Positions 1-19,685 of a stretch of 32,000 nucleotides of DNA are shown one piece after another. Within the stretch, counting starts at the first letter, position 1; each line of letters opens with the position of its first letter. The notes beneath the pieces are model-generated. The model made no database searches, had not been told where the DNA came from, and saw nothing but the letters and a program-made list of their open reading frames with translations. Source of the DNA: Delftia acidovorans NBRC 14950 (GTDB taxonomy: Bacteria > Pseudomonadota > Gammaproteobacteria > Burkholderiales > Burkholderiaceae_C); NCBI RefSeq assembly GCF_001598795.1, contig NZ_BCZP01000009.1:90001-122000 (forward strand), given 5' to 3'. The position numbers and the translations under genes were made by a program.

Positions 1-1
1 C

Positions 2-2532: not shown

Positions 2533-2546
2533 TCCCGAGGTAGCCC

Positions 2547-3716
2547 ATGATCTACACGTTTGATTCCACCCAGGCCGGCGCCCCGGTGCTGTCCGGCACG
2601 GCCGGCGCGCTGGCGACGGTCCTCAAAGCCTGCCTGGTCGATGGCTTCGGCGCAGGCGTTGTCGTGTCGCTGGTGGTCACCGCCGGCGTCGCCAAGGCCA
2701 CGTATTCGGCCTCCCATCCTTTCCGGGCGGGAACCGTCGCGCGCATCGCTGGCGCGACGCCCGCAGGACTGAACGGCGACAAGCTGATCCTGGCGACCAC
2801 GGCCAACAGCGTCACCTATACCGCAGCGGACGTGGCGGACGGGGCGGCCACAGGCACCATCACCAGCCGCATGGCGCCTGCCGGATGGCAGGAGCTGTTC
2901 GCAGGCACGGTAGCCAATGTGCTGGTGGTCAAGCCCTCGGCTGTGGAGGCAACCGGTTGCGTGCTGCGAATCGATGATGCCGGCACGACCAATGCGCGCC
3001 TGCGCGGCTATGAGTCCATGACCGATGCGGTGACCGGCCATGGGCCGATCCCACTCGACAGCCATGTGTCAGGCGGCGTGTACTGGTCCAAGGCCTATGG
3101 CGCCGACGGCACGCCGATCCCCTGGCGCGTCTGGGCCGACAGCAGGGGTTTCTACTTCGCCGTGTCCCCTCGCGGCAATGCGGATCGGTACACGCTCTTC
3201 TATGCCGGAGACCTTGCAAGCTTCAAGTCCGGCGATGCCTGGGGCTGGTTGCTCACGGGCAATGCATCGGACCAGGTCGGCGTGACCTGGCGGCCAGATG
3301 GTTGCTGTGGCTGGTCCAGCCGTAATGCGCGCGCCGGCATGTATCTCGCGCGCTCGCATACCGGCGTGGGCCAGTCCATTGCGGCGGCCCGATATGGCGC
3401 CCACCACAACGGCCCCGCCACGGAAACCTATGCCGGCACCAGCGGCTACGCATGGGGCTCCTACCCCAACAGTCCCAACAACGGGCTGATGACCGGCGAG
3501 CTTGAGGTGTTCGCCCTGGGCATGCGGGGCACATTGCCTGGCCTGCTGCATCCCATACAGGATTGCGGCGACGCATTCACCAGCGGGACCACGCTGGACG
3601 GCACGGACGAATTCCTGGGGCGCAAGCTCATGGCTTGGCGCGTGGGTCCACCCGCGCTGGGCGGCGAGGGCGGCGGTACTGTGTTCATCGATGCGACAGG
3701 CCCCTGGAGCCGCTGA
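2547..3716 (+). CDS. phage tail-region protein (389 aa), family not recognised
   Basis: The ATG is preceded by GAGG (gaggtagcccATG). It is a 389-aa ORF starting MIYTFDSTQAGAPVLSGTAG..., and its stop overlaps the next start. Confidence 0.6.
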   Translation: MIYTFDSTQAGAPVLSGTAGALATVLKACLVDGFGAGVVVSLVVTAGVAKATYSASHPFRAGTVARIAGATPAGLNGDKLILATTANSVTYTAADVADGAATGTITSRMAPAGWQELFAGTVANVLVVKPSAVEATGCVLRIDDAGTTNARLRGYESMTDAVTGHGPIPLDSHVSGGVYWSKAYGADGTPIPWRVWADSRGFYFAVSPRGNADRYTLFYAGDLASFKSGDAWGWLLTGNASDQVGVTWRPDGCCGWSSRNARAGMYLARSHTGVGQSIAAARYGAHHNGPATETYAGTSGYAWGSYPNSPNNGLMTGELEVFALGMRGTLPGLLHPIQDCGDAFTSGTTLDGTDEFLGRKLMAWRVGPPALGGEGGGTVFIDATGPWSR

Positions 3717-5116: not shown

Positions 5117-5544
5117 CCGCCGGCATCTGGGAGATCGGCCCCGCCATGGCACTGGCGCAGCTGCAGGCCACGGCCACGCGCTCGGACGTGGGCACTGGCA
5201 ACGCCCGCGTGCGCATCTACCTCGAGGTGCCGGCCGACTTCCTCGGCAGCCGAGGGGTTCAACAGGCCGAGGTCGTGCTGGCCAGGCCCAGCGCCACGGT
5301 GGTCAACGGCACCCTGGTGCTGCACGTCCGCGATGCGGCCGGCGCCATGGTCATGGCCACAGGCATCCCGCGTTGGGCAGACTGGCATGCAGCCGATGGC
5401 ACGCTGCTCGCCGGCGGCGAGGTGTCGGACGCTGATCACGCTGGCCCCTGGCGCCTTTTCGGCGGCCAGACCCCTGAGGGCGAGACCAGCCCGCTGCTGT
5501 ACGCCGGCAGCCTGGTGCAGCTCGGCGAAACCAGCCTGACGTAG
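5113..5544 (+). CDS. small phage tail-region protein (143 aa)
   Basis: The ATG at 5113 overlaps the upstream stop (ccATGAcc). It lies in frame within listed ORF 4978..5544. It is followed 2 nt later by the next gene. Confidence 0.5.
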   Translation: MTAGIWEIGPAMALAQLQATATRSDVGTGNARVRIYLEVPADFLGSRGVQQAEVVLARPSATVVNGTLVLHVRDAAGAMVMATGIPRWADWHAADGTLLAGGEVSDADHAGPWRLFGGQTPEGETSPLLYAGSLVQLGETSLT

Positions 5545-5546
5545 CC

Positions 5547-7433: not shown

Positions 7434-7666
7434 CCACAACCAACCTTTTCAAGCGTTTGCAGCAGTTGCTGCCGGCCGATCCTGTGCTCACGGGCACCGT
7501 GTCAGCGGTCGATGGCGATGGGATGGCCACTGTGGACTTGCCTGGCGGCGGGAATTTGCGTGTGCGCAATCCGCTGGGCAGCGCGCTGGGCGACAGCGTC
7601 TACATCCAGGGGCAGGCGATCACAGGGGATGCTCCGCAGCTCCCCTTTGTGCGTATCGAAATCTAG
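7430..7666 (+). CDS. small phage protein (78 aa)
   Basis: ATGA overlap with the upstream gene. It is the last gene before the lysis cassette. Confidence 0.5.
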   Translation: MTTTNLFKRLQQLLPADPVLTGTVSAVDGDGMATVDLPGGGNLRVRNPLGSALGDSVYIQGQAITGDAPQLPFVRIEI

Positions 7667-7687
7667 AAACAACACAGGAGGAAATCA

Positions 7688-7990
7688 ATGCAGGACGACT
7701 ACGGCAACGCCCTGGCCCCCCATACCGCGAAGTCCATCACCTCGCGGCTGGATGAGGGCGACAAGCGCATGACCCGCATAGAGCAAGAGTTGCAGGCCAA
7801 CACCGTTGCCACGCAACAGGTGAAGGCGAACACCGAGGAAATGGTGGAGTACTTCGCGGCAATGAAGGGAGCGTTTCGGGTGCTCAACTGGATCGGCAAG
7901 GTTGCCAAGCCCATCACCTACATCGTGATGCTGGGCACGGCGGGGATTGCGTTCTGGAAAGCCTTGATGGTAGGGGGAGGTGGCCGATGA
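7688..7990 (+). CDS. putative holin (single C-terminal TMD, N-terminal coiled coil)
   Basis: Strong RBS (acacAGGAGGaaatcaATG). It is 100 aa with one hydrophobic helix (PITYIVMLGTAGIAFWKALMV) near the C-terminus. Its stop overlaps the endolysin start. The holin call rests on position only. Confidence 0.5.
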   Translation: MQDDYGNALAPHTAKSITSRLDEGDKRMTRIEQELQANTVATQQVKANTEEMVEYFAAMKGAFRVLNWIGKVAKPITYIVMLGTAGIAFWKALMVGGGGR

Positions 7991-8595
7991 ACGAGACACT
8001 CCGCAATCGTCTGCTCGCCACGGCTGCCGGCCTGGCTGCCACTGCAGCTGGAGGCTACGTCGCTACGAAGGAGGCCGGGCCCAGCCCCGCCGTGGCGCTG
8101 GCCCGCGAGATTGGGCTGCACTACGAAAGCAGCGGCCGGCACATCGGCACGCCCTACATCGACCGCCTGGGCAAGGGGCAGCCGCTGACCGTCTGCGCGG
8201 GCGTCACAGGCCCCGAAGTTGTGGCGGGGCGCTACTACAGTCCCGAGGACTGCGAGCGCCTGGAGCGACCCAAATACCGCGAGGCCGAGCGCTTGGCGCG
8301 TCGGGCGCTGCGGCACTGGGACAGCTACAACCTCTGGGTGCAGGCCAGCTTTATAGACATGGCCTACAACGTGCCCTCGGCGCTCGCACCAGATACCACC
8401 GTCCTGCGGCTGGCCAACGCCGGGCAGCTGGATGCGGCATGCCAGCAGATGCCGCGTTGGGTCTACGGCACCGTGAACGGCGTGCCCACGCGGCTGCCTG
8501 GTCTTGTTGATCGCCGCGATACCACGCGCGAGCTGTGCGCGCAGTGGGGCAGGGACGGGCATTTCAGTGTCGGGCTGCTGGCACGGGGGTCATGA
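7987..8595 (+). CDS. SAR-type endolysin, glycoside hydrolase family 24 (phage lysozyme)
   Basis: The N-terminal Gly/Ala-rich weakly hydrophobic segment LLATAAGLAATAAGGYVA looks like a signal-anchor-release domain. The GH24 catalytic pattern E-x9-Y-I-D-x8-T-V-C-A-G-V-T-G is present (HYESSGRHIGTPYIDRLGKGQPLTVCAGVTG). Confidence 0.85.
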   Translation: MNETLRNRLLATAAGLAATAAGGYVATKEAGPSPAVALAREIGLHYESSGRHIGTPYIDRLGKGQPLTVCAGVTGPEVVAGRYYSPEDCERLERPKYREAERLARRALRHWDSYNLWVQASFIDMAYNVPSALAPDTTVLRLANAGQLDAACQQMPRWVYGTVNGVPTRLPGLVDRRDTTRELCAQWGRDGHFSVGLLARGS

Positions 8596-8849
8596 TGAAG
8601 TCAATGATTGGAGTCGCTGTCGTCGTCGCCTCACTTTCGGGCTGCACGATAGTTTCGGTGGGCTCTGTCCATCAGGCCTGCCGCGTGGTTGAGGTCGCTG
8701 CGGCCGAGGCTGACATGGCGCCGGCCTGGTACATCAGCGCCGGGCAAGTGCTGGAGCGCTGCGGCGTGCCTGAGGCCCGCGAGCGCGCCGAGCAATCCGC
8801 CTGTGCGGCCCAGCGTCGCGCCGGCTACAGCTGCGAGGCCAGCCCATGA
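8592..8849 (+). CDS. phage lipoprotein (85 aa) inside lysis cassette
   Basis: MMKSMIGVAVVVASLSGC is a signal peptide with lipobox LSGC. The mature part has four more Cys. The ATG overlaps the endolysin stop and its own stop overlaps the i-spanin start. Confidence 0.6.
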   Translation: MMKSMIGVAVVVASLSGCTIVSVGSVHQACRVVEVAAAEADMAPAWYISAGQVLERCGVPEARERAEQSACAAQRRAGYSCEASP

Positions 8850-9415
8850 TGGCCCGCCTGCAAGCCCATGCCTGGCAGCTGCTGGCTTTGCTGCTGGCGG
8901 CCCTGCTGGCCTGGCAGGCCCTGGCCCGCCTTGGCGCCGAGCGCGATGCCGCGCAGGCACGCACCAATCTGGCGGCTGATCGAGAAGCCGCGGCCCTGGC
9001 TGCCCTGCAGGCAGCCGAGCGATACCGAAAACTTGAGGAGCAACACCGTGATGACCTGCGCAACATCGACACCCAGGCCAAGCAGGATCTGGCGCGTTAT
9101 GCAGCTGACGCTGATGCTGCCCGCGCTGCTGCTGGCCGGCTGCGCGGCGACCTCGCCGATTACATCGCCACCCACCGTGCCGCCGCCGAGGCTCGCGCCG
9201 CTGCCGGACAGTGCGCGCCAGACACCGGCGCCCTCGATCTGCTCGCCGAGCTGCAGCGCCGCGCTGACGAGCGAGCGGGAGAGTTGGCGCGCATTGCTGA
9301 CGACGCCCGAGGCCGGGGCAGCGCCTGCGAGCGCGCCTACGATGCCGGTAGCGCGATGATCGAGGCGGCGCGCCAGGTCGGCGCTACTGTCAATCCTCCG
9401 GGCAGCGCTCCATAG
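8846..9415 (+). CDS. i-spanin (Rz-like, DUF2514-type lysis protein)
   Basis: It has an N-terminal TMD (WQLLALLLAALLAWQAL) followed by a long Ala/Arg/Glu-rich coiled coil. The C-terminal ...LLAELQRRADERAGELARIADDARGRGSACERAYDA resembles DUF2514 spanins. It contains an embedded lipoprotein ORF in the +1 frame. Confidence 0.75.
   Translation: MMARLQAHAWQLLALLLAALLAWQALARLGAERDAAQARTNLAADREAAALAALQAAERYRKLEEQHRDDLRNIDTQAKQDLARYAADADAARAAAGRLRGDLADYIATHRAAAEARAAAGQCAPDTGALDLLAELQRRADERAGELARIADDARGRGSACERAYDAGSAMIEAARQVGATVNPPGSAP
9099..9359 (+). CDS. o-spanin (Rz1-like), embedded in the i-spanin gene
   Basis: This is the internal ATG of listed ORF 8868..9359. MQLTLMLPALLLAGC carries lipobox LAGC, followed by a Pro-rich mature region (SPPTVPPPRLAPLPDSARQTPAPS). 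It lies wholly inside 8846..9415 in another frame, which is the lambda Rz/Rz1 architecture. Confidence 0.7.
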   Translation: MQLTLMLPALLLAGCAATSPITSPPTVPPPRLAPLPDSARQTPAPSICSPSCSAALTSERESWRALLTTPEAGAAPASAPTMPVAR

Positions 9416-9599
9416 CCCAGTCCAGCGCCTCGGCGGCAGTGGTGTGCGGCCCGTCGAAGGCCCTGATGCCGCGCTCGTCATCCCAGAGGGCGCCGGTCCA
9501 ACGACGGGCAGCAGGGAAGGGCAGGCGTCCGTAGTCCACGACGCAGGCGTACCAGCCCGGCGCCGTTGGCTGGCCACCCCAGATCAGGCTGTCAGCCAT
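9390..9599 (-). CDS. small hypothetical protein (69 aa), second gene of a two-gene minus-strand pair
   Basis: This uses the internal Met (MADSLIWGGQPTAPGWY...) of listed ORF 9390..9731. That start overlaps the stop of the upstream small gene by 8 nt. The 3' end overlaps the convergent i-spanin 3' end. Confidence 0.4.
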   Translation of the reverse strand: MADSLIWGGQPTAPGWYACVVDYGRLPFPAARRWTGALWDDERGIRAFDGPHTTAAEALDWAMERCPED

Positions 9600-9801
9600 G
9601 GCGCGTCGGAAGGATCTGCACCGGCCCGAGGCCGCTGTACACCAGGGCTCCGCCCGGCCCACGCACTTCAAACCATCCAGGCTGCGCCTCCACGATCCGG
9701 TAGGCCTCTGGTGGTGCTGGAAGCGGCTCAATCTCAGGCACGCCGAACCATTCCGGCATGCGAAGCAGGGCGAATTTCGGGGATGGCTGCGGGGTGATCA
9801 T
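9592..9801 (-). CDS. small hypothetical protein (69 aa), first gene of a two-gene minus-strand pair
   Basis: The Met at 9801 (MITPQPSPKF...) is preceded on the minus strand by GGAGG (cacGGAGGtccagATG). A sigma70-like promoter with an embedded LexA box lies upstream. Confidence 0.45.
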   Translation of the reverse strand: MITPQPSPKFALLRMPEWFGVPEIEPLPAPPEAYRIVEAQPGWFEVRGPGGALVYSGLGPVQILPTRHG

Positions 9802-9834
9802 CTGGACCTCCGTGAGATCGGGTTTGCATAATAA

Positions 9835-9850
9835 CTGTACATCCATACAG
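9835..9850. promoter_or_regulatory. LexA (SOS) box in a divergent promoter region
   Basis: aaCTGTacatccatACAGtg is a perfect CTGT-N8-ACAG. On the minus strand it fills the 17-nt spacer between TTTTCA (-35-like) and TATTAT (-10-like), upstream of the 9801 gene. On the plus strand it lies 10 nt upstream of the ATG at 9861. Confidence 0.7.
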
Positions 9851-9860
9851 TGAAAATGTC

Positions 9861-10361
9861 ATGCCCCACGATCAATCAGGGTTGCCCGACCTGCCGGGAC
9901 GGTACAAGCGCGACGGCTGTTCGCCGGGCAGCGTGCGCGAGCGCGAGGGGCATTTGGTCGCAGGCTGGCCGGTGACGATGCTCCGCCTCCGCTTTTGCGG
10001 CGTCTACATGCCGATCCACAAGCTCCACAAGGTGCACAGAGTGACCGGCCTGCTGCTGACGACAAACGAATGTGGCGACGACAGGGTGGACATCATCGAT
10101 CCGGGCGGATCAGGCAATGAACTCACGCGAGGCATGATCCACGTGGAGATGCTGAAGGCCCGTCCTGATGGCTCGATGCTGCTGCAGGGGCAAGAGTGGG
10201 ATGAGGGCGATCTGAGACAGTGGCCGCAGACGTGGCTGTGCTGCCCTGACCGCGCTGGCATAGATCCGGCGCTTCAGCTTATGCAGAGCTGGCTCAATCG
10301 GCAGTACGCTGCGGCCAAGGCGGCGATCGAGCGGCCTGGAAAGAGGTGGCCCTATGTGTAA
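9861..10361 (+). CDS. hypothetical protein (166 aa) translationally coupled to the SRAP gene
   Basis: The ORF starts 10 nt after the LexA box and its 3' end overlaps the SRAP start by 8 nt. No recognisable domain. The true start could be an internal Met (MLRLRF... or MPIHKL...). Confidence 0.45.
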   Translation: MPHDQSGLPDLPGRYKRDGCSPGSVREREGHLVAGWPVTMLRLRFCGVYMPIHKLHKVHRVTGLLLTTNECGDDRVDIIDPGGSGNELTRGMIHVEMLKARPDGSMLLQGQEWDEGDLRQWPQTWLCCPDRAGIDPALQLMQSWLNRQYAAAKAAIERPGKRWPYV

Positions 10362-11016
10362 TAGATACCAGTCCCCACGCGAGACCGAGATTGAGCGCAT
10401 GTGGCACGTTGGCCGGCACAACCCCGGGCGCTGGTGGGACGAAGATGTTTTCCCGCGCGGCACCGGCGCGTTCGTGCGCCGCGCCCAGGACGACACGGGC
10501 TACAGCCGAGAGCTTGTCGCCGGAACCTGGGGCCTGATTCCCTGGTTTGCGAAAGAGCCGCGCTTGAAATTTCCTACGAACAACGCGCGCAGTGAAGAAC
10601 TGAGCCAGAAGGCCAGCTACAAGCACCCGTGGGCCAGGAGTCAGCGCTGCATCATCCCCGCGACGACGTTCGATGAACCCAACTGGGAGACAGGGAAGAA
10701 TGTGTGGTGGCGGTTCGCGCGCGCCGACGGCGACCCGTGGGGCCTGGCGGGCTTGTGGAATGTGTGGACCGACCCTGCCACGGGGCAGATCCATGAAAGC
10801 TACACGATGCTCACGATCAACGCGGATGCGCACCCGCTGATGAGCCGCATGCACAAGCCGGACCCGAAGCTGCCAGCGGATCGGCAGGACAAGCGCAGTG
10901 TGATCCCCATCGAACTTGCCGACGTGGACCAGTGGCTTGCGGGCACCTTGGCCGAGGCCTCGCAGCTGCTGCGCGTGGCACCTGTCGAAGTGTTCCAGGC
11001 CGGCCCAGTCGCCTGA
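10354..11016 (+). CDS. SOS-response-associated peptidase (SRAP; YedK/HMCES family, DUF159)
   Basis: The N-terminal MCNRY has the invariant Cys2. The length (220 aa) and motifs fit the SRAP family (GLIPWFAKEP...FPTNNARSEE, CIIPATTFDEPNWE, ESYTMLTINA). Confidence 0.8.
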   Translation: MCNRYQSPRETEIERMWHVGRHNPGRWWDEDVFPRGTGAFVRRAQDDTGYSRELVAGTWGLIPWFAKEPRLKFPTNNARSEELSQKASYKHPWARSQRCIIPATTFDEPNWETGKNVWWRFARADGDPWGLAGLWNVWTDPATGQIHESYTMLTINADAHPLMSRMHKPDPKLPADRQDKRSVIPIELADVDQWLAGTLAEASQLLRVAPVEVFQAGPVA

Positions 11017-11030
11017 ACCCAAACGAAAAA

Positions 11031-11076
11031 AAGCCCCCTCGGCAGCCATCACGGCGTCGAGGGGGCTTTTGTCGTT
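11031..11076. terminator. bidirectional rho-independent terminator shared by the SRAP gene and gloA
   Basis: aaaaaaAGCCCCCTCGgcagccatcacggcgtCGAGGGGGCTtttgtcgttt. It has a GC-rich 10-11 bp stem, an A-run on the left and a T-run on the right. Confidence 0.8.
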
Positions 11077-11531
11077 TAAGCGCTGCGCAATGGATCTGTA
11101 TTCTCTCCATTGGCTTCTGATTGGCGGCTGTCTTTGTAAGTCCTTGATTTTTCTTGTATGAGTTCGATCTTGTAGCCGTCCGGATCCGTCACAAAGGCAA
11201 TCACCGTGGTGCCGCCCTTGACGGGGCCTGCCTCGCGCGTCACGTTGCCGCCGGACGCCTTGATCTTCTCGCAGGCGGCATACGCGTCCGGTACGCCAAT
11301 GGCGATGTGACCATAGGCCGAGCCCATCTCATAGGCCTCGGTGCCCCAGTTGTAGGTCAGCTCGATCTCGGCTTGGGCCGGGTTGCCGCCCTCGAAGCCC
11401 AGGAAGGCCAGGGAGTATTTGTACTCAGGGTTCTCGGAAGTTCGCAGCAGCTGCATGCCAAGAACCTGTGTGTAGAAATCGATGGAGCGCTGGAAGTTGC
11501 CAACGCGCAGCATGGTGTGGAGGATTCGCAT
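11076..11531 (-). CDS. gloA: lactoylglutathione lyase (glyoxalase I)
   Basis: [46 protein letters not shown]...[34 protein letters not shown] is near-colinear with E. coli GloA. The start is taken at the MRILH Met rather than the listed upstream Met. It has an unusual ~24-aa C-terminal tail. Confidence 0.9.
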
Positions 11532-11746
11532 CCCTCGATTGTGCCGGGATTCCGCCATCTCTTCAGCCGCCCGCCAAGCGCCGCAGTGATCTCATCGCGC
11601 ACAAGTCTGGCGCCTTCCCGCAGATCGGGCACGTCAGGGCCTGACGGCATCTGGCCCGAATCCATTCAACCATTGGTTCAACTGTCTGTTGAATTCTAGG
11701 AGTGGGACCTAGGACTGGTACCCGATTTTTCGGCAATAAATCTTGC

Positions 11747-11792
11747 AAATCAGACAAATCTTAGATTTTTGGATTGAAAAATCAGACAAATC
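11747..11792 (+). promoter_or_regulatory. direct repeat AAATCAGACAAATC x2 upstream of the first response-regulator gene
   Basis: An identical 14-mer occurs at 11747-11760 and 11779-11792 (32-nt, about three helical turns, start-to-start). It lies in the AT-rich leader ~75-120 nt upstream of the ATG at 11865. It is a candidate regulator binding site. Confidence 0.4.
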
Positions 11793-11864
11793 CAATTAAA
11801 TCCTAGTAGCCGGCTGCCTAGAATAGGAATGTTCTTCGTGCGAATTATTTTAATTTTTTGAGTC

Positions 11865-12521
11865 ATGAAAAATTTCGTCTTGCGGATACTAATTGCCGAT
11901 GACCATCCGGCAGTTCTGGCAGGCATAGAAAGTGTTTTGGAGGACAAGCATGAAATAGAGATTGTAGGTCGAGCGAAAAACTCCACGGAAATCATAAGCT
12001 TTCTGAAGAAAAACGAATGTGATGTTCTGGTAACTGATTATTCCATGCCCGGTGGAACCTACGGTGATGGTCTGGTGATGCTGAATGTCATTCGGAAAAG
12101 ATTTCCAAGTGTCAAGATCGTCATGCTGACAATGATCGAGAATATTGGAATCATCAAATCTCTTACCAACCAAGGAATCTACAGAATTGTCCATAAAACG
12201 GATTCCTTGGGAAGTCTGCTGCCCGCCATCTACGCTGCATACACGGATGGTCAATTCATATCTCCCAGTGCAAGCAAGCTGCTGGGAGGAGAATGGCTGG
12301 GTGCGGTGCGGACATCGATAGAACTCTCAAAACGGGAAGAAGAGGTTCTGCTTCTTTTCATCTCTGGCATGACGGTGTCCGAGATAGCAAAAAAACTCTA
12401 TCGCAGTATCAAGACGGTCAGCACGCACAAGGTGGCTGTCATGAACAAGCTGGGTATACGCAAGGACATTGATCTCATTCGCTATGGGATTGAGATGGGC
12501 TGGATTGACGTAAGGAAATAG
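11865..12521 (+). CDS. RcsB-like response regulator (REC + LuxR/FixJ-type HTH)
   Basis: Receiver features are ILIADDHP and DVLVTDYSMPGGTYGDGLVMLNVIRKRFP, with the phospho-acceptor at D58. The DxSMPGxxYGDG...FP signature matches RcsB. The C-terminal LSKREEEVLLLFISGMTVSEIAKKLYRSIKTVSTHKVAVMNKLG is a LuxR-type HTH. Confidence 0.85.
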   Translation: MKNFVLRILIADDHPAVLAGIESVLEDKHEIEIVGRAKNSTEIISFLKKNECDVLVTDYSMPGGTYGDGLVMLNVIRKRFPSVKIVMLTMIENIGIIKSLTNQGIYRIVHKTDSLGSLLPAIYAAYTDGQFISPSASKLLGGEWLGAVRTSIELSKREEEVLLLFISGMTVSEIAKKLYRSIKTVSTHKVAVMNKLGIRKDIDLIRYGIEMGWIDVRK

Positions 12522-12635
12522 GGAAAGAAATGCATCGTCATTGCCGCAGACGATCCGACCAAGTTACATGCCATCCGCAGCTTTCTTGCAAAGATTTCTT
12601 TTATTACATGAGGAGATCCACAGCCTGATCGATGG

Positions 12636-15584
12636 TTGTATCTTGATGCCCAGATGGAAATATATAAAAAAGAGGCTGGAGAAAAGGAAGAGCTCCACCT
12701 TCTGACCAAATACAACAAGACACTGCTTTTTGGCGGTGGCCTGGTTTTCTCTCTTCTTATCATTGTTTTGGCAATGCTTGCGGCCCTGTTCGAGCTCAAT
12801 GATTTCATGGAGGAAAGAAGAGCAGTATTCCAGAGCAAGAGAACCCGGGTTCTGGTAGAGATAGAAACAAAGCAAGTCATTATGATGCGAGGAATCATTG
12901 CATCAGAGTTGCTTTGGGGGCAGACGCACACATCTCATCCCGGCGTCTTTGCCGGGGCAGATGCTGTGATGGCAGGGGTGAGTCCTGTAGTATTGCTTGA
13001 GAATAAGATCAACAAGAATGTACACAAGCACTACAGAGATATGTTGGGAGAGCTGGCATATTTGGCAAATTCCAGCTTTCTTCAAAATGGAAGAGCAATA
13101 TCTGCCTATGTCTTCAGTCCGGACAGATCGTTCATAGGCGTCCTTGTACCGCAGGTACCAAACGGGCATGAGCGAAAAGACATGCTCTTGAAACTCAGGG
13201 AACAGATTTCGACTTTGCCTGAGGATAACGGCACCATCATTCCGTCCGTCCAGCTGCGTCATCCCATATGGCTGCCTCCGAGTAAAAGCATTCTGACTGG
13301 GGAGATGTCATTTCAGATTGTTGTTTCGGCTTTCCAAGATGGAAAGCCATTTCTCACGGTGGTGAGCGACATGCCGACTCAATATATCGAGAGCCTTATG
13401 CAGCAGGGTGAAGGCAGGAACTCCTTATTTATTATTGATTCTCAAGGCAACGTTGCGTTGGGTGGGGAGGGGATCGGCGATGCAATAGGGGATTTTTTTG
13501 ATATCGAGGCGTCGAAATTTCACGGAGGACTGATAAGTAGATATATTTTGAGCAAGTATGGCGCCGTCTATAGGAATGGATATTTTTATTACTATTCGAG
13601 GATATCAAATACGAACATGATACTTCTCCAGGTTTTTTCCTGGAAAGATGCTGTGTATTTAAATGGGAAGTCCCTTGTATATTTGCTGTTTTCATTGATA
13701 TTCATCATTTTTTTCTGGTGTTTTTTGATATATTTTTATGATAGGGTTTTTATTCCAATATATGGGAAAGCCAAAAATGTTTTTGACACGGAACATCTAA
13801 GCCGCACCATCATTGCCATGGCGCCTTATGGACTTGGTCTTCTTGATTTCAAGGAAAAGAAGATGCTGTTGGAAAACAGCATGATGTACAAGTACAAAGA
13901 AAGCATGGTGTTGGATGATAAGTCTGCTGGTGAGCGGTTGATTGAATATTTTCTCAGATTCTACGGTGAGAAATATCTGAGTGGAAAAAAGACTGAATAT
14001 TTGCCGGTAGTCAGCGAAGTCGTGGTCTCTTACAACGGAACGGTTGCAGAGCTTTCAGTGATCATGGTGAAGGCCAAATATCAGGGGAGGCATGTCCTGC
14101 TGTGTGGATTTGCCGATATCACTGTACACAAGCAGGTGCAAAGAAATCTGGAAGATGCCAAAAAGGCGGCAGAAGAGGCAAACCAGGAAAAATCTTCTTT
14201 TCTTGCTGCCATGAGCCACGAGATACGCACGCCACTGAATGCAATATTGGGAAATCTGGAAATACTGGGAAGAAGCTCCATGTCAGAAGAGCAGCAAACC
14301 AGGCTCACCACCATATCATCTTCATCCCATTCTCTTTTGACGCTGCTGAATGATGTTCTCGACTTCTCGAAGATCGAGTCTGGTCAGATGAGTGTGGAAT
14401 TTGCCAGCTTTGATCTCAAGTCTGTGATTCAGCAGGTGGCTGCCATTTACAAACCGCTGGCTGCGGAATTAGGTATAGGATTTTCCTTGATCATTGACCA
14501 TTCGCTGAGGGAGGGATATATAGGAGATGGCGAGAGAATAAAGCAAATCCTCAACAATCTTCTCAGCAACTCCTTGAAATTCACCAAGGCTGGCAAGATT
14601 GACGTATTTGCATCAGACAGGGCCGGTGAGCTCAAGATCAAAGTGTCAGATACCGGGATAGGCATTCATCCCTCACAGCACCCCTTCATCTTTGACGCAT
14701 TCAAGCAGGCAGGCTCGGATATAGCGGCGGAATTTGGTGGTACGGGGCTGGGCCTGACGCTGTGTCAGCGTATGGCACATCTCATGGGCGGGGAAATCCG
14801 GTTCTTCAGCGTGCCGGGAAAGGGCAGCATTTTCGAATTGACCTTGCCCGCATGCCACGCCCAGCCTGTTCCTGCTTGCTTGGGTTGGGACCATGGCGAT
14901 GTCATGCTTGCAAACGATGAAAGCGCAGGTTATGGCGCAAGGATTCTCATCGTCGATGATCACCCGGTCAATAGGCTGCTGCTTCTGGATCAGCTGAAAA
15001 TCCTCGGCTTCGAGGCGGAATCTGCAGAAGGCGGGGAATCCGCTTTGCGAATGATGTCGCGGAATATCTATGATCTGGTTCTTACGGACCTGCAAATGCC
15101 CGGAATGAGCGGTTATGTACTTGCTCAGCGCATCAAGCAGAATTATCCGGCAATTCCTGTGGGAGCAATAACGGCACATGCAGGCAAGCAGGAAAAATTC
15201 AAATGTGCAAAATTTGGCATCGCAGATATTCTTGTCAAGCCGGCCTCCTTGAAAAACCTCAAGGAATTCATTGGAAAAAATATAGGAAAGTCTGGCAAGG
15301 GTGTCGCTGAAGCTGCGGAAGTTCCGGGCAGCAGATTGCCTTATCGTGATGTATTGATTTCAGCAACCGAAAACTCATTGGCTGCGTTGAGAAAGCATTT
15401 GCTGCAAGGTGATCTGATGGCTGTGCACCGTGAAATTCATGCCATGAAAGGGTCATTTGCGGTGGCTGGGCTGAAGGATAGAGTGGAAGATATGGACCGA
15501 TTGTCATCTCTTGTCAATATGCGGCACTTCCGTGCAGTGGATGATGCCCTGACTGACCTGCTGGAGAACCTGAGAGATATCTGA
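12636..15584 (+). CDS. RcsC-like unorthodox hybrid sensor histidine kinase (2 TM, periplasmic sensor, HisKA, HATPase_c, REC, C-terminal HPt)
   Basis: TM1 is LLFGGGLVFSLLIIVLAMLAALF, followed by a ~300-aa periplasmic domain and TM2 LVYLLFSLIFIIFFWCFLIYF. The post-TM2 YDRVFIPIYG...EHLSRTIIAMAPYGLGLLD resembles the RcsC juxtamembrane region. The H-box is AAMSHEIRTPLNAILG (His ~528) and the G-box is GGTGLGLTLCQRMAHLMGG. The REC is ILIVDDHPVNR...DLVLTDLQMPGMSGY (Asp ~818). The HPt is HREIHAMKGSFAVAGL (His ~935). The listed start is TTG 12636; ATG 12654 is an alternative. Confidence 0.85.
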   Translation: MYLDAQMEIYKKEAGEKEELHLLTKYNKTLLFGGGLVFSLLIIVLAMLAALFELNDFMEERRAVFQSKRTRVLVEIETKQVIMMRGIIASELLWGQTHTSHPGVFAGADAVMAGVSPVVLLENKINKNVHKHYRDMLGELAYLANSSFLQNGRAISAYVFSPDRSFIGVLVPQVPNGHERKDMLLKLREQISTLPEDNGTIIPSVQLRHPIWLPPSKSILTGEMSFQIVVSAFQDGKPFLTVVSDMPTQYIESLMQQGEGRNSLFIIDSQGNVALGGEGIGDAIGDFFDIEASKFHGGLISRYILSKYGAVYRNGYFYYYSRISNTNMILLQVFSWKDAVYLNGKSLVYLLFSLIFIIFFWCFLIYFYDRVFIPIYGKAKNVFDTEHLSRTIIAMAPYGLGLLDFKEKKMLLENSMMYKYKESMVLDDKSAGERLIEYFLRFYGEKYLSGKKTEYLPVVSEVVVSYNGTVAELSVIMVKAKYQGRHVLLCGFADITVHKQVQRNLEDAKKAAEEANQEKSSFLAAMSHEIRTPLNAILGNLEILGRSSMSEEQQTRLTTISSSSHSLLTLLNDVLDFSKIESGQMSVEFASFDLKSVIQQVAAIYKPLAAELGIGFSLIIDHSLREGYIGDGERIKQILNNLLSNSLKFTKAGKIDVFASDRAGELKIKVSDTGIGIHPSQHPFIFDAFKQAGSDIAAEFGGTGLGLTLCQRMAHLMGGEIRFFSVPGKGSIFELTLPACHAQPVPACLGWDHGDVMLANDESAGYGARILIVDDHPVNRLLLLDQLKILGFEAESAEGGESALRMMSRNIYDLVLTDLQMPGMSGYVLAQRIKQNYPAIPVGAITAHAGKQEKFKCAKFGIADILVKPASLKNLKEFIGKNIGKSGKGVAEAAEVPGSRLPYRDVLISATENSLAALRKHLLQGDLMAVHREIHAMKGSFAVAGLKDRVEDMDRLSSLVNMRHFRAVDDALTDLLENLRDI

Positions 15585-15647
15585 TGAGCCGTGGTGCAAT
15601 GATGCTGCACTGAACGATTGTGTTTATTCCGTTGATGGTGCCAAATC

Positions 15648-16343
15648 ATGTTTTCCAATACAAATCACAGAAAAGATTTGAATATATCCGTACTGCTGGC
15701 CGATGATCATCCTGGAATCATCTCAGGCATCCGGCATGAGTTGTCTTCCGAGCTGGAAATCCTGTTGAAAGCCAGTGTTTCAAATTCAACCGATCTGGTG
15801 AAAAAGTTGGATGAGGGTGGCTTTGACGTGCTTGTTTCGGATTACTCCATGCCTACGGGTCAATACGGAGATGGCTTGAATCTGTTTGGCTATATATCCA
15901 GAAGATTTCCGAACCTGGGTTTGGTGGTCCTGACCATGCTGGACAATTCGGCCATTCTCCAGGCACTGGGCAAGGTGTCGAACATCAGCATCGTGAGCAA
16001 GGCGGACCCGGTGCTGCATCTGGTTCCAGCCATTCATGCTGCCTATACAGGAGGGACATACTTCTCTCCAGCCATTTCCGAGCGACTGGAAAAAATGAAT
16101 GCGGGTGTCATGGGCGGCGAAGGAAAATCACCGGGGGTGCTCAGTCCCAAGGAATCGGAGGTGGTAAGGCTTTATGCGGCCGGTTTGCGTATCGACGAGA
16201 TCGCGGCCAAGCTGAACAGAAGCAAGAAAACCATCAGCACCCAGAAAGTCAAGGCCATGCACAAGCTTGGAATTGAACGAGACATTGATCTGATGAAGTA
16301 TGCCCTTGAGTGCGGATGGGTGACCTCATCGAGATCTCAATGA
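15648..16343 (+). CDS. second RcsB-like response regulator (REC + LuxR/FixJ-type HTH)
   Basis: Receiver features are VLLADDHP and DVLVSDYSMPTGQYGDGLNLFGYISRRFP (D65). The C-terminal LSPKESEVVRLYAAGLRIDEIAAKLNRSKKTISTQKVKAMHKLG closely parallels RcsB (LSPKESEVLRLFAEGFLVTEIAKKLNRSIKTISSQKKSAMMKLG). Confidence 0.85.
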   Translation: MFSNTNHRKDLNISVLLADDHPGIISGIRHELSSELEILLKASVSNSTDLVKKLDEGGFDVLVSDYSMPTGQYGDGLNLFGYISRRFPNLGLVVLTMLDNSAILQALGKVSNISIVSKADPVLHLVPAIHAAYTGGTYFSPAISERLEKMNAGVMGGEGKSPGVLSPKESEVVRLYAAGLRIDEIAAKLNRSKKTISTQKVKAMHKLGIERDIDLMKYALECGWVTSSRSQ

Positions 16344-16354
16344 TGACCGGTTCT

Positions 16355-17236
16355 TTATCTGCCGTTCAAGGTCCGGATTTCTTCCAGGAGCTGGTCAAGC
16401 TGCAATTCCAGCGCCAGCAGCGAGTGCGCATGGTGCATCAGCCCATCATGGTTGATGCCGTTTTCCAGGCCGGCACAGCGTATTGACAGCTCAGTCAGGT
16501 CAAAAAATCGCAGTGAACCGGAAAGATTGTGCAGCTCTCTTTGCACATCCTTGCGATTCTTGCTGGATTTGATGATCGCCAGCGACGAACGTGCAGACTC
16601 CAGAAAGGCCGTTCTGATGGGGGCCGGGATCTGTTGAAAATGGGCGACGTCATCGGTCGACGAAATGCGGCCGCTGTTGGCAGGCCGGGGCTGAACGGCC
16701 AGTTGCAGTGCATCAAAGAGGCCCTGCAGCGAACGCCAGGAGACTTCGATGATGCGGGCGTTGATCACCTTGGGTTGCAGCGGGTGATCAGCCTCGCATT
16801 CGATGATGCTTGCAGCTCCTGCCACCAGGCGGTTTTCATCCTTGGGATTCCAGGACGTTTTCGATCCGCAAAGCACAACAACCTGGAACTTCTGAAGGCG
16901 ATCCTGGCGAATGGCCGTGGGATGGTGGCAGGCCGTGGTCGCCAGGCCCCAACTTTTGAGGTGCGGGAGCAGATGGGCGTGTAGTTCATCGGATGACGAG
17001 ATGAACAAAACCTGCTCGCCTGAAAATGACAAAGCGGAGGATGAGGGCTCTTCTGTGGTGGTTATCGATTCGGCGGCAGTCGAGAACTTTTCAGAACGGT
17101 ATGGTGTGGGTGCACTGTCCAAGGTGGATGTCTGTTTTTTCATGGGTGGCCGAGCATCTGGCGCCGGCATCTGCAGCCAGTCACTCGCTGGAGGCTTCAG
17201 ATCCGGCTGGAAGATTGGACCACGGCATCCATCCAT
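16355..17236 (-). CDS. soluble pseudo-receiver + HPt-like phosphotransfer protein (RcsD C-terminal-half-like); start uncertain
   Basis: The C-terminal helical domain has an HPt-like motif, RELHNLSGSLRFFDL (H-x-L-x-G-S). The central part (EQVLFISSSDELHAHLLPHLKSWGLATTA...FQVVVLCG) looks like an alpha/beta receiver-type fold lacking the acidic pocket. No TM segment. Alternative starts are at 17170 and 17143 (MKKQTST...). The domain calls are inferred from motifs only. Confidence 0.5.
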   Translation of the reverse strand: MDGCRGPIFQPDLKPPASDWLQMPAPDARPPMKKQTSTLDSAPTPYRSEKFSTAAESITTTEEPSSSALSFSGEQVLFISSSDELHAHLLPHLKSWGLATTACHHPTAIRQDRLQKFQVVVLCGSKTSWNPKDENRLVAGAASIIECEADHPLQPKVINARIIEVSWRSLQGLFDALQLAVQPRPANSGRISSTDDVAHFQQIPAPIRTAFLESARSSLAIIKSSKNRKDVQRELHNLSGSLRFFDLTELSIRCAGLENGINHDGLMHHAHSLLALELQLDQLLEEIRTLNGR

Positions 17237-17346
17237 GGTGCATGTTTAAGGACATGTCCATAGAGCATCCTTGTTTCACCTGCGTGGCGTCTGGCCTTGG
17301 AAGCCCAAGCCCGGGCATTCAGGTGTGTCAGCAAGTGCCGCAGGAA

Positions 17347-17380
17347 TGAAAAAAGCCTGCAGAGAACTGCAGGCTGTTTT
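17347..17380. terminator. bidirectional rho-independent terminator downstream of the H-NS-family gene
   Basis: gaaaaaAGCCTGCAGagaaCTGCAGGCTgtttt. It has a 9-bp perfect stem and a 4-nt loop. The A6 run on the left gives a U-run for the minus-strand transcript. Confidence 0.75.
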
Positions 17381-17402
17381 CATGGAGGCGTTTATCCAGG
17401 CT

Positions 17403-17678
17403 TCAGATGGCGAACTGGGCGCGATCCTTGTCCTTGATCCAGGCGGGGGGCTTGCCACGGCCGGTCCAGGTGTCACCGGTTTCGGGATTGCGGAACTTGG
17501 GGGCCACGGTGGAGGGGGCGCGGCGTGCCGTGAAGATGTCGTCGGCAGTCAGGCCGTAATCCTGAACCAGACCGCGAATCTTGGCGATCACATCACTGAC
17601 TTCTTGCTTGCGTGCTGTCTGGATCTGGGCCTCGAGTGCCTCGCGCTGTGCCAGAAGTTCTTTGTATGTGGTGTTCAC
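17403..17678 (-). CDS. H-NS family nucleoid-associated protein (xenogeneic silencer type)
   Basis: It is 91 aa with an N-terminal coiled coil (YKELLAQREALEAQIQTARKQE). The C-terminal DNA-binding motif TWTGRGKPPAWI matches the H-NS core TWTGQGRTPAVI. Confidence 0.85.
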   Translation of the reverse strand: MNTTYKELLAQREALEAQIQTARKQEVSDVIAKIRGLVQDYGLTADDIFTARRAPSTVAPKFRNPETGDTWTGRGKPPAWIKDKDRAQFAI

Positions 17679-18154
17679 GGTAGTTTGCCTTTCATGGATT
17701 GAAGCGCGAATATTAACGGTTTTTTAAGAACAAGTTTGCATGCTTTCGATCATTTTCTCCTATGACTGCCATTGGCAGTCCTGACCGTGTTCAAAATGAT
17801 CGGTCAACGCCAGGTAAAGGCCATGTAAAGAGCCGGCAGTTATGGGGCGCTGTATGTTCCGGAGCCCTTCAAAATCCTGTATGCCCTCGCTTTCAGGTTT
17901 GAAGCGCCGTGGTTCACAGGGGTGAGTGATCGGCTGCGAAGGAGTTTGGGCTTATTGAAGGGGATGTGAAAGGCGATGCCGTGATCAAACTGCACCGCAC
18001 ATTGGAAATTCTTGAAGTCCAGTCTGTACGCTGCTTGCCAACGGCTTTTTGCGTGGGGTTGGGGGAGGGTGGCGAGCGGGCTGCAAGCGAAAGATGAGGG
18101 TGTTGGTGGTCCCGCGACATCCTTCGCAAAAGACACGCGTTTTTGCCCACAAAA

Positions 18155-18182: not shown

Positions 18183-18470
18183 ATGAGCATCGATCAGATC
18201 GCCTTCGCACTCCCCGCAGTCCTTGCCGTCTGGCTGTCGCAGTCCCGTTCCGTTGCCCTGCGGCGGTGGGCCTGCCTTCTCGGCCTGGGATGCATGCCTT
18301 ACTGGATATATGTGGCCCTGTTGGCCGGGCAATGGGGCATGTTGGCCTTGGTAGGCGCCTTTGCGCTGGGCTGGCTCAAGGGGCTTTGGGTGCACTGGCT
18401 GGCACCTCGTCGGCGTGAGGCCGTGGGCTCGGGCCTTGGCACCATCCAGATCACGCCGGGCACCCGTTGA
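18183..18470 (+). CDS. small integral membrane protein (95 aa, ~3 TM), putatively LexA-regulated
   Basis: This uses the internal Met of listed ORF 18012..18470. MSIDQIAFALPAVLAVWLSQS...WACLLGLGCMPYWIYVALLAGQWGMLALVGAFALGWLKGLWV gives three hydrophobic segments followed by a basic tail. The LexA box is directly upstream. Confidence 0.5.
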   Translation: MSIDQIAFALPAVLAVWLSQSRSVALRRWACLLGLGCMPYWIYVALLAGQWGMLALVGAFALGWLKGLWVHWLAPRRREAVGSGLGTIQITPGTR

Positions 18471-18978
18471 CGGCTGGCCGCTGGTCCGCGCCTTGTGTTC
18501 ATCGATGCTGCAGGCGGGCGCGTGTTTTACGGGCGCTGTGCATGGCGTGCTCGGGAATTTCAAGCGTTCTCACTGGAATTTGATGCAGATAAAAGCCGAG
18601 TGTTTTGCTTGGTTGGTGTGATGGCCGTGCCGATGCACCGGCTGCCAGGGTGCCCTGCTGTCTTTATGCCCAGCCGTGCATGGCTGCAAGACTGGGCCGG
18701 GGCTGTGATGCAAGGATTTCTGCCCTTTGTGCACTGTGGTGGTGCGCGTCTTTCGGTTCTTGGTGCAGGTTTCCGGATCGGCTGGTAGCGCTGTGTTTTT
18801 GTGGATATTTCCGATTTGTATGGTGAGTTATGTGAGCAAAAAGCCACGGAGTTTGCGGGTCTGTGCAGGTCCTTGTATGGACGCCAGCTGGCAGTGATGG
18901 GCAAGTCCGAGGCATAGAATCGTTTGCATACAACAGGCAGTCATCTATCAGAGTTGCCTCTAAAAACCACGTGAAAAC

Positions 18979-19010
18979 AGCCCACCCCGTTGGCGGTGGG
19001 CTTTCTTTTT
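18979..19010 (+). terminator. orphan rho-independent terminator
   Basis: AGCCCACCccgttggcGGTGGGCTttcttttt is a GC-rich stem followed by a T-run. No convincing CDS ends just upstream. Confidence 0.6.
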
Positions 19011-19060
19011 CGGGCTTGGCCGCGGCGAGCCCGTCGCCTGATTTTTCAGTGCGCACCTAT

Positions 19061-19094
19061 GGTTTGCACCTGTTGTCAACCACAAGGTTTGCAC
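19061..19094 (+). promoter_or_regulatory. tandem GGTTTGCAC motifs upstream of the aldehyde-oxidoreductase operon
   Basis: GGTTTGCAC occurs at 19061-19069 and 19086-19094, 25-nt start-to-start. The second copy ends 3 nt before the ATG at 19098. It is a possible operator or promoter element; the function is inferred. Confidence 0.3.
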
Positions 19095-19097
19095 ACG

Positions 19098-19685
19098 ATG
19101 AAATTCACTCTCAACCAACAAGAGGTCGAGATCCAGGGCGTGAGCCCTGAGACGCCGCTGCTTTATGTGCTGCGCAACGACATGCAGCTCAACGGTCCCA
19201 AGTTCGGCTGCGGCCTGGGCGAATGCGGCGCATGCGCCGTGCTGATCGACGGCAAGGTGGCCCGCTCCTGCTCCGTTCCCGTGAGCGTGGTCCAGGGCAT
19301 GAAGGTCACGACGCTGGAAGGCCTGTCCCAGGACGCGACCCAGGCCGAGCACGCCCGCGTGGCGCGTGACTGGGAAGCAGCCCATCCGGCCGCCGTGCCG
19401 GGCATGCCTGCCGGCAAGCCGACAGCCGATGCACAGGGCAAGGCTGTCTACCGACTGCACCCTGTGCAGCAGGCTTTCATTGACGAGCAGGCTGCCCAGT
19501 GCGGCTACTGCACCAACGGCATGGTCATGGCCCTCGTGGCCTTGTTCGACCACAAGCCCACGGCCACCGACGAGGAAGTCATCCAGACCCTGTCCGGCCA
19601 CCTGTGCCGCTGCGGCACGCATGTGGAAATCATGCGTGCGGCTGCTCGCGCCCGCGTGCTGATCGCCCAGGGAGGTGCAGCATGA
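19098..19685 (+). CDS. (2Fe-2S)-binding small subunit of a molybdenum aldehyde/isoquinoline oxidoreductase
   Basis: MKFTLNQQEVEI...PLLYVLRNDMQLNGPKFGCGLGECGACAV is the plant-type 2Fe-2S site. QCGYCTNGMVMA...GHLCRCGTHVEI is the second cluster. The start is at the internal Met of listed ORF 18990... An unusual ~40-aa insert lies between the two cluster domains. Confidence 0.85.
   Translation: MKFTLNQQEVEIQGVSPETPLLYVLRNDMQLNGPKFGCGLGECGACAVLIDGKVARSCSVPVSVVQGMKVTTLEGLSQDATQAEHARVARDWEAAHPAAVPGMPAGKPTADAQGKAVYRLHPVQQAFIDEQAAQCGYCTNGMVMALVALFDHKPTATDEEVIQTLSGHLCRCGTHVEIMRAAARARVLIAQGGAA

Follow-up and report, generated by a model that had tools for sequence, protein, structure and literature searches.

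The DNA analysed here, referred to below as the window, is a 32,000-nucleotide stretch of the Delftia acidovorans NBRC 14950 genome (contig NZ_BCZP01000009.1, positions 90,001 to 122,000), and all coordinates are positions within this stretch. Between gloA and a Fer2/MoCoBD/cytochrome c operon the window carries an AT-rich block encoding two response regulators (RR1 and RR2), a hybrid sensor kinase and a convergently transcribed HPt protein. We consider it probable that this block encodes a multistep phosphorelay of the Rcs/Roc type, carried on the Delftia chromosome in a fixed, AT-rich slot whose alleles are hypervariable. As judged from the encoded proteins, the locus appears to be a relay of the kind known from Roc and from the Rcs system of Pseudomonas aeruginosa PA14, with an HPt domain in cis on the kinase, an ABL-HPt adaptor in trans and two regulators. 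A first reading made from the letters of the DNA alone (the sequence-only reading) had proposed the same gene content, which open reading frames (ORFs) together with Pfam and NCBIfam searches bear out.

Two response regulators of the RcsB family

RR1 (11865–12521, plus strand, 218 amino acids) and RR2 (15648–16343, plus strand, 231 amino acids) each combine a Pfam Response_reg domain with a GerE (LuxR-type) helix-turn-helix domain. The best NCBIfam model for both is RcsB, with scores of 163 bits for RR1 and 168 bits for RR2 compared with 113 and 75 bits for the next family. A search of PDB sequences gave the same picture, as RcsB scored 144 and 150 bits with the two regulators and the next chain scored 64 and 46 bits, the chains that follow RcsB being VraR, ChrA, EvgA and NarL at 36–64 bits. 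Alignments also bear out the RcsB-type receiver signature that had been noticed in the sequence-only reading; it reads DYSMPTGQYGDG...RRFP in RR2 and DYSMPGGTYGDG...KRFP in RR1, compared with DLSMPGDKYGDG...KRHFP in RcsB. Phospho-acceptor and switch residues are kept in both proteins. Identity to E. coli RcsB is 40% for RR1 and 41% for RR2, and because RR1 and RR2 are only 43% identical to each other they are not recent duplicates.

We placed the two regulators in a neighbour-joining tree together with RcsB from E. coli, Klebsiella and Serratia, NarL and EvgA from E. coli, and a sample of database matches. RcsB and the RcsB-like proteins form one clade with 100% bootstrap support, with EvgA and NarL outside of it, and the non-enterobacterial RcsB-like proteins form a clade of their own, again with 100% support, that is sister to enterobacterial RcsB. 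RR2 branches with regulators from Burkholderia, Achromobacter and Herbaspirillum (92% bootstrap) and RR1 forms a separate deep lineage. At E ≤ 1e-25 RR2 is matched by 678 protein clusters, many of them automatically annotated as "RcsB", from taxa that include Burkholderia, Paraburkholderia, Achromobacter, Stenotrophomonas, Dyella, Herbaspirillum and Acidovorax. RR2 also shares 47% identity with a P. aeruginosa regulator whose gene ends a cupB fimbrial cluster. Profile scores, PDB scores and the 100%-bootstrap clade thus agree with the affinity claimed earlier, and on this comparison both regulators belong specifically to the RcsB family and not to a generic NarL group.

An RcsC-like kinase with its own HPt domain

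The gene between the two regulators (12654–15584, plus strand) encodes an unorthodox RcsC-like sensor kinase of 976 amino acids with HisKA, HATPase_c, Response_reg and Hpt domains. The ATG at 12654 is the most likely start, as the database orthologue is also 976 amino acids long, and a TTG at 12636 is an alternative start. Two transmembrane segments (TM1, ~24–47; TM2, ~340–362) flank a periplasmic domain of ~290 residues and are followed in order by an RcsC-like linker or PAS-like segment, HisKA, HATPase, REC and HPt, which is the layout that had been proposed. All catalytic and phospho-acceptor residues are kept, with phosphorylation sites at H522, D812 and H929. The last of these lies in the motif HAMKGS of the terminal HPt domain, which the sequence-only reading had also recognized; this domain scores 24.7 bits, just over the Pfam cut-off of 24.6, and its histidine is nearly invariant in the kinase family alignment.

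RcsC is the best NCBIfam model for the kinase (359 bits), followed by TorS (331 bits), BarA (297 bits) and EvgS (219 bits), and the best-scoring receiver-domain structure in the PDB is the RcsC receiver (90 bits). A BLAST alignment with E. coli RcsC shows 33% identity between kinase residues 364–737 and RcsC residues 340–694, a stretch that begins directly after TM2 and spans the PAS-like linker, HisKA and HATPase, and 46% identity in REC. The periplasmic domain has no Pfam match, and a profile of the N-terminal 362 residues is weakly collinear with the periplasmic domain of RcsC (105–338 versus 98–314, E 0.019). Together these comparisons point to RcsC as the closest characterised relative of the kinase, as had been suggested before. 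Only ~30 residues separate the end of HATPase (739) from the start of REC (770, both in the numbering of the 982-residue ORF) and Pfam RcsC PF09456 (ABL) finds no match in the kinase, from which we conclude that it has no ABL domain.

The nearest database kinase is a Delftia acidovorans protein with 98% identity. Full-length relatives are few, comprising Delftia proteins at 98, 89, 88, 72, 66 and 59% identity and further proteins at ~48%; outside Delftia we found one in Glaciimonas soli (35%) and two in Achromobacter pestifer (~33–36%). This taxonomic distribution rests on protein searches. A contig scan with the kinase alignment returned 80 loci that were set aside as unrelated hybrid kinases, the shared motifs (MSHEIRTP, NLLSNAxKFT) being generic.

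A convergent HPt protein and its RcsD-like forms

The HPt gene (16355–17143, minus strand) converges on the gene for RR2 and encodes 262 amino acids with a Pfam Hpt match of 32 bits. Its ORF is open to 17236 (293 amino acids) and the NCBI annotation has 271 amino acids, while other allelic forms have 262. No transmembrane segment is predicted in the window protein and it has no pseudokinase part, in keeping with the second, soluble HPt protein of the sequence-only reading. We found in addition that this protein resembles RcsD in having a predicted ABL-type domain directly before its HPt domain.

Three lines of evidence bear on the ABL-type domain. The first is position. An exhaustive HMMER search returned 65 relatives, mostly kinases of ~1100–1160 amino acids, in which residues ~740–870 are matched by residues 65–190 of the HPt protein. 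The matched region lies between HATPase_c and Response_reg in these kinases, which also end in Hpt by Pfam, and it coincides with the position of ABL in RcsC. Kinases of ~1100 amino acids with this ABL-like domain occur in Burkholderia, Paraburkholderia and Bordetella avium. The second is fold. AlphaFold models (pLDDT 78 for the full protein and 95 for the first domain alone) predict a receiver-like alpha/beta domain with a loop in place of helix 4, followed by a four-helix HPt bundle, and the acidic phospho-acceptor after strand 3 of a receiver is absent from the model. With the single-domain model Foldseek retrieved receiver domains along with E. coli RcsD-ABL (2KX7), which ranked 8 of 1811 with E 9e-4, TM-scores of 0.63/0.66 and 114/116 columns aligned. 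The matches of an earlier run, made with both domains, were mostly KaiA and full-length response regulators, after which the domain was modelled alone. The third is register, as the best hhalign matches fall at the start of ABL in both RcsD (687–720, with a shared W-G motif) and RcsC (704–755). On position, fold and register together the first domain is predicted to be of the ABL type, with modest statistical support.

The allele in the Delftia context L006 encodes a longer partner of 631 amino acids in the same place, comprising an N-terminal transmembrane segment, a HisKA-like region, a degenerate HATPase, an ABL-like domain and HPt. Its H-box histidine is replaced (SHEIRTPLN to ESIQKPLN). 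The protein is collinear with a Paraburkholderia kinase over HisKA-HATPase-ABL and over HPt, skipping REC, and it gives a weak match to the pseudokinase part of E. coli RcsD. By these alignments the L006 form appears to have the architecture of RcsD, and the HPt protein of the window appears to be a cut-down RcsD-like protein descended from a pseudokinase that is still full-length in L006.

Several results weigh against this assignment and against the Rcs relationship as a whole. In Foldseek true receiver domains reach scores as high as that of RcsD-ABL, which means that the fold by itself cannot part ABL from REC; the hhalign E-values are weak (0.015 for RcsD and 0.067 for RcsC); and neither the Pfam RcsC-ABL and RcsD-ABL models nor a search of PDB sequences with an HMM of the domain gave a relevant match. 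The Pfam and NCBIfam RcsD models likewise miss the HPt protein. Furthermore, no protein of the block reaches the NCBIfam equivalog cut-off of its nearest family, which is 235 bits for RcsB (NF008098; RR1 and RR2), 920 bits for RcsC (NF008099; the kinase) and 634 bits for RcsD (the HPt protein). These scores and the lack of ABL in the kinase do not support the sequence-only reading. The same low scores and the missing Pfam ABL domain would be expected of a generic NarL/BvgS-type two-component cluster with a superficial likeness to Rcs, whose HPt protein is an unrelated stand-alone phosphotransferase, and the TorS and BarA scores of the kinase are indeed near that of RcsC. We nevertheless regard such a generic cluster as very unlikely: the regulators score 50–90 bits higher for RcsB than for other families and join RcsB with 100% bootstrap support, the RcsC match of the kinase runs through the juxtamembrane/PAS-like segment, and the first domain of the HPt protein is the one found at the ABL position of RcsC-like kinases, with an RcsD-ABL match in both fold and register.

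Divergent alleles in a fixed slot

Background GC content of the window is ~68%. GC falls to 0.36–0.53 over 11501–16000, lies at 0.53–0.62 from there to ~19000 and is 0.63–0.73 elsewhere. The lowest value (0.36, at 13501–14000) falls within the kinase gene, at the end of the periplasmic domain and TM2, and not in intergenic DNA. By windowed GC and nucleotide identity to the sister strain L001 the divergent and compositionally odd block extends over ~11.0–19.05 kb. The AT-rich character that the sequence-only reading had ascribed to a segment between gloA and hns is thus correct, and its size of ~5.5 kb is too small.

In all Delftia contexts retrieved the block sits between gloA and the Fer2/MoCoBD/cytochrome c operon, with a GC content of 45–55% compared with ~69% in the flanks. 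The homologous systems of Achromobacter and Glaciimonas have host-like GC. Protein identities to the window show how far these alleles have diverged. For L001, L004 and L006, in this order, the flanking MoCoBD protein is 99, 93 and 93% identical, compared with 95, 82 and 74% for RR1, 84, 78 and 71% for RR2, 72, 59 and 48% for the kinase, and 68, 47 and 30% for the HPt protein. At the nucleotide level identity to L001 is 56–90% from 11076 to ~19055 and 98–100% further right. Synonymous divergence (dS) from L001 is 0.039 in MoCoBD, 0.17 in Fer2 (19098–19685), 0.48 in gloA and 0.8–2.0, which is saturated, in the block genes. RR1 and RR2 give trees of identical allele topology.

The ratio of nonsynonymous to synonymous divergence (dN/dS) of the block genes relative to L001 is 0.02–0.26. 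RR1 is the most constrained gene of the block (dN/dS 0.02, dS 0.93). By these values purifying selection acts on all of the block genes. We rejected positive selection as an explanation for their divergence, with dN/dS at 0.02–0.37 in every computable gene or kinase domain, dS being saturated in several of them. The simplest reading of these comparisons is that old, constrained alleles have been swapped among Delftia lineages by homologous recombination through the flanks. Scattered recombination end-points in the flanks would explain the intermediate dS of gloA and Fer2; gloA has a GC content at third codon positions (GC3) of 0.73, compared with 0.90 in the background. Among the points against our reading belongs the composition of the block itself, as its non-equilibrium state (GC3 of 0.52–0.65 versus 0.90) could give part of the dS excess.

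The sequence-only reading had interpreted the block as a horizontally acquired island with an ancestral or alternative Rcs architecture, probably silenced by H-NS and plugging into host promoters. Taken as a recent acquisition with an architecture new to science, this reading agrees with the sharply AT-rich composition, the adjoining hns-family gene and the Rcs affinity of the proteins, and the wholesale replacement of the block between near-identical strains indicates that it does move horizontally within the genus. However, the block has the same slot and the same low GC in every Delftia lineage retrieved, for which reason we do not consider it a recent insertion. No tRNA genes, flanking direct repeats or integrase were found in the block or at its borders, and a search for terminators gave no convincing border. 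The hns-family gene is missing in two of the four allele contexts examined, and the architecture is already known from PA14 (PMC2696094) and occurs commonly among Burkholderiales. The sequence-only reading had itself named a conserved block of the same GC as an observation that would speak against an island, and within Delftia such a locus is what we found. We therefore regard the island reading as unlikely, and return to the phosphorelay in a fixed hypervariable slot as the preferred one.

A PvrR-like remnant between RR1 and the kinase

In the gap that separates the RR1 and kinase genes the window retains a 99-nucleotide, in-frame remnant (12530–12628, plus strand, 33 codons including the stop) of a gene for a PvrR-like REC-EAL phosphodiesterase. 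It would encode MHRHCRRRSDQVTCHPQLSCKDFFYYMRRSTA, and both of its ends align to the start and the end of a 390-amino-acid EAL gene in L001. That gene lies between RR1 and the kinase in L001–L003 and has a full-length NCBIfam PvrR match (199 bits, cut-off 580). Relative to it ~1.06 kb has been removed cleanly and in frame, suggesting that the window allele lost its PvrR-like EAL gene by an internal deletion. The sequence-only reading had stated that the island carries no cargo genes. This is correct for intact cargo and overlooked the remnant; no fimbrial or adhesin genes were found by ORFs and Pfam in the block or in the rest of the window. By the same means no RcsF, IgaA or RcsA was found encoded in the block.

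The in-frame deletion, the absence of cargo and the short partner protein (262 amino acids in the window, 631 in L006) could be taken as signs that the locus is decaying and non-functional in the window strain. We find this highly improbable. None of the four ORFs that remain is disrupted, their catalytic residues are in place, dN/dS stays at 0.02–0.26 at saturated dS, and the 262-residue form of the partner is conserved across several alleles and is predicted to fold confidently.

Upstream region of RR1 and the hns-family gene

A candidate control region of RR1 (11738–11828, plus strand) contains AAATC pentamers, 14-mers and a conserved 12-mer. The pentamers recur at ~9–10 bp phasing (11738–11802) and include two exact copies of the 14-mer AAATCAGACAAATC 32 bp apart, which has 6 matches at ≤3 mismatches compared with 0.9 expected. 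These phased AAATC tracts could resemble curved A-tract DNA upstream of the RR1 promoter. The 12-mer CCTAGAATAGGA (11817–11828) precedes the ATG of RR1 by ~37 bp. It forms an imperfect palindrome containing TAGAAT and is invariant in four alleles, in a surrounding region of ~62% identity. Judged by position and conservation it could be a −10 element (TAGAAT) or an RcsB-type operator. The sole further match to CCTAGAATAGGA in the window is a site with 2 mismatches in the kinase gene, which is at chance level.

The hns-family gene (17403–17678, minus strand) encodes a 91-amino-acid H-NS family protein that matches Pfam Histone_HNS PF00816 with 41.3 bits (cut-off 25.6). It is present in allele A (the window) and in allele B (L001–L003, 96% amino acid identity) and absent from L004–L006. 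In L004 and L005 a 264-amino-acid stand-alone EAL gene (12526–13320) takes the place of hns. AT-richness is kept in all alleles, and putative selection for H-NS-type control is a plausible idea. Between the hns-family and HPt genes we noted a bidirectional terminator-like hairpin (17354–17375) with a 9-bp stem, 6 GC pairs and T tracts on both strands, identified as a consensus match only. The HPt gene probably has its own promoter, because this hairpin comes after the hns gene.

Relation to known phosphorelays

According to reviews, the Rcs system is found only in Enterobacteriaceae (PMC5651002). In P. aeruginosa PA14 the genes rcsC, rcsB, pvrS and pvrR lie beside cupD on PAPI-1 (PMC2696094). 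RcsC of PA14 is an unorthodox sensor with transmitter, receiver and Hpt that works with RcsB (PMC2696094, PMC3842833); it acts in both phosphorelay and phosphatase directions, and PvrS is a kinase upstream of it (PMC3842833). RcsB of PA14 activates cupD, pvrR, which encodes an EAL protein, and several core-genome regulators (PMC3842833). An "unsplit" Rcs architecture is therefore not new, and the components are widespread in Burkholderiales. Compared by description, the Delftia and PA14 loci share an unorthodox sensor (kinase, REC and HPt) with an RcsB-named NarL-type regulator, a REC-EAL PvrR partner that is intact in the sister allele L001 and a remnant in the window, and a tie to horizontally exchanged DNA. 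The Delftia locus differs in that it has neither a PvrS-like second hybrid kinase nor an adjoining cupD fimbrial operon. Two of its components, the second RcsB-like regulator and the separate ABL-HPt protein, have no described equivalent in PA14.

Several features are shared with the enterobacterial Rcs system. RcsB is the nearest characterised relative of both regulators in signature and helix-turn-helix, RcsC is the nearest characterised kinase in the linker, HisKA, HATPase and REC, an ABL-type domain would directly precede HPt in the partner as at the RcsD C-terminus, and the L006 allele keeps a membrane-anchored, histidine-less pseudokinase partner. In contrast to the enterobacterial system, the Delftia kinase has its own HPt and no ABL, there are two regulators instead of one, the partner in the window is soluble and only 262–293 amino acids long, and RcsF, IgaA and RcsA are not in the locus. 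The Delftia proteins are also far under the equivalog cut-offs and the regulators fall in a separate clade with 100% support.

A single unorthodox sensor feeding a NarL-type activator is also the arrangement of P. aeruginosa Roc and Bordetella BvgS-BvgA. RocS1 and BvgS have solute-binding-protein (SBP_bac_3-type) domains as their periplasmic part, whereas that of the Delftia kinase has no Pfam match and aligns weakly with RcsC. The BvgS-type kinase EvgS is likewise a poorer match to the Delftia kinase than RcsC is (219 versus 359 bits), and EvgA falls outside the RcsB clade. PMC2696094 describes Roc (RocS1/RocA1/RocR) and BvgS/BvgA as systems in which one unorthodox sensor signals to a NarL-type activator in adhesin and fimbria control, with an EAL antagonist in Roc. 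Of the features typical of Roc and PA14 Rcs, the window has the HisKA-HATPase-REC-HPt membrane sensor and the RcsB-like GerE regulator, and an intact REC-EAL antagonist (PvrR/RocR) and adjoining adhesin or fimbrial cargo are absent from it. CblRST of Burkholderia cenocepacia, which controls cable pili, is summarised in PMC3842833 as a system in which phosphate from two kinases reaches a single regulator by way of the HPt of one sensor. It resembles the Delftia locus, by description only, as a multi-component relay in a Burkholderiales species, and it differs in the number of active kinases, which is two in CblRST and one in Delftia.

Burkholderiales and Xanthomonadales have RcsB-like regulators and unorthodox kinases of the RcsC-like type in abundance, often beside fimbrial or adhesin genes. 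Relatives adjoin YadA-type adhesins in Glaciimonas and Burkholderia, and chaperone-usher fimbriae in the P. aeruginosa cupB cluster and in Bordetella avium. A compact Achromobacter pestifer locus (L010, 3907–14036) encodes two each of unorthodox kinases and RcsB-like regulators, along with a REC-EAL protein, at normal host GC; among the loci examined it looks like the most complete non-enterobacterial counterpart. In Bordetella avium (L098, 8001–19290) the gene for an unorthodox kinase of 1142 amino acids that includes the ABL-like domain precedes a chaperone-usher fimbrial operon by ~2 kb, and the interval contains no called response regulator. A literature search linking RcsB with Delftia returned nothing relevant.

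Proposed phosphate flow and origin of the relay

Based on work in PA14 and E. coli, we propose that a periplasmic signal would toggle the kinase between kinase and phosphatase modes. Phosphate would pass from H522 to D812 to H929 within the kinase and then to RR1, RR2 or both. The ABL-HPt protein may use its ABL domain as a docking site for the RcsB-like regulators, in the way that RcsB docks on RcsD-ABL, and once docked it could serve either as a second phosphotransfer hub or as a sink for back-transfer. The regulators would act on promoters elsewhere in the genome, most likely those of adhesin, fimbrial or biofilm genes, an output that we infer because relatives of the locus adjoin adhesin or fimbrial genes. 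They probably also act on their own promoter through CCTAGAATAGGA. Loss of the PvrR-like protein would remove a cyclic di-GMP phosphodiesterase (dispersal) branch from the window allele, and homologous recombination in the conserved flanks would carry the divergent alleles from one Delftia strain to another.

A more far-reaching and rather doubtful proposal is that the locus records a second, independent split into RcsC and RcsD. In this scenario an ancestral kinase with ABL, REC and HPt would have been duplicated, after which one copy dropped ABL while retaining kinase activity, REC and HPt. The other copy would have lost its phospho-accepting histidine and REC, giving the RcsD-like form of 631 amino acids, and would then have been cut down to a soluble ABL-HPt protein. 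Balancing or diversifying selection would have preserved the cassette as a set of ancient, AT-rich alleles that recombine. An unorthodox kinase of the ancestral type, with ABL, REC and HPt, is still common in Burkholderiales. If the scenario is true, the cassette behaves like a surface-antigen locus yet encodes a signalling pathway.

Every core Rcs module has a clear counterpart in Burkholderiales. The regulator is of the RcsB type and the sensor of the RcsC type, one domain is predicted to be of the ABL type, and a histidine-less pseudokinase with HPt resembles RcsD. The intermediate forms among the relatives make the origin of the RcsC/RcsD split testable. The block also offers a clean example of a regulatory cassette, as opposed to a surface structure, that is held as deeply divergent alleles in a fixed slot. 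That it is still AT-rich in a genome of 68% GC bears on how targets of xenogeneic silencers persist. None of this overturns current understanding.

Block borders and neighbouring genes

The left flank gene gloA (11076–11558, minus strand), for a lactoylglutathione lyase (Pfam Glyoxalase; NCBIfam lactoylglutathione lyase, 223 bits), is itself part of the hypervariable block and is 80–89% identical to L001 at the nucleotide level. At the right end of the block (18183–18470, plus strand) a gene for a predicted membrane protein of 95 amino acids is called at the equivalent position in all alleles, with 60–78% amino acid identity; it contains a predicted hydrophobic segment, has no Pfam match and was assigned to no family. 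The right border itself falls at 19050–19060, just upstream of the Fer2/MoCoBD aldehyde-oxidase operon, where identity to L001 rises from 56–80% to 98–100% between the windows 18806–19055 and 19056–19305.

The DNA to the left of gloA (1–11016) resembles the terminal part of a prophage or of an integrated element. It contains a phage lysozyme gene (7987–8595), a Laminin_G_3-type tail-fibre-like ORF (3563–5116), a gene for an SOS-response-associated peptidase (SRAP, 10354–11016) and large ORFs without a Pfam match. Other Delftia strains have OmpA, ChaC and Cu-Zn superoxide dismutase genes in place of this DNA, and homology with them starts at ~11018–11145. In L002 an insertion sequence (DDE_Tnp_1) lies between ompA and gloA (4455–5263), and upstream of gloA the L006 context encodes a 2017-amino-acid AAA_16/AAA_22-type protein (363–6416).

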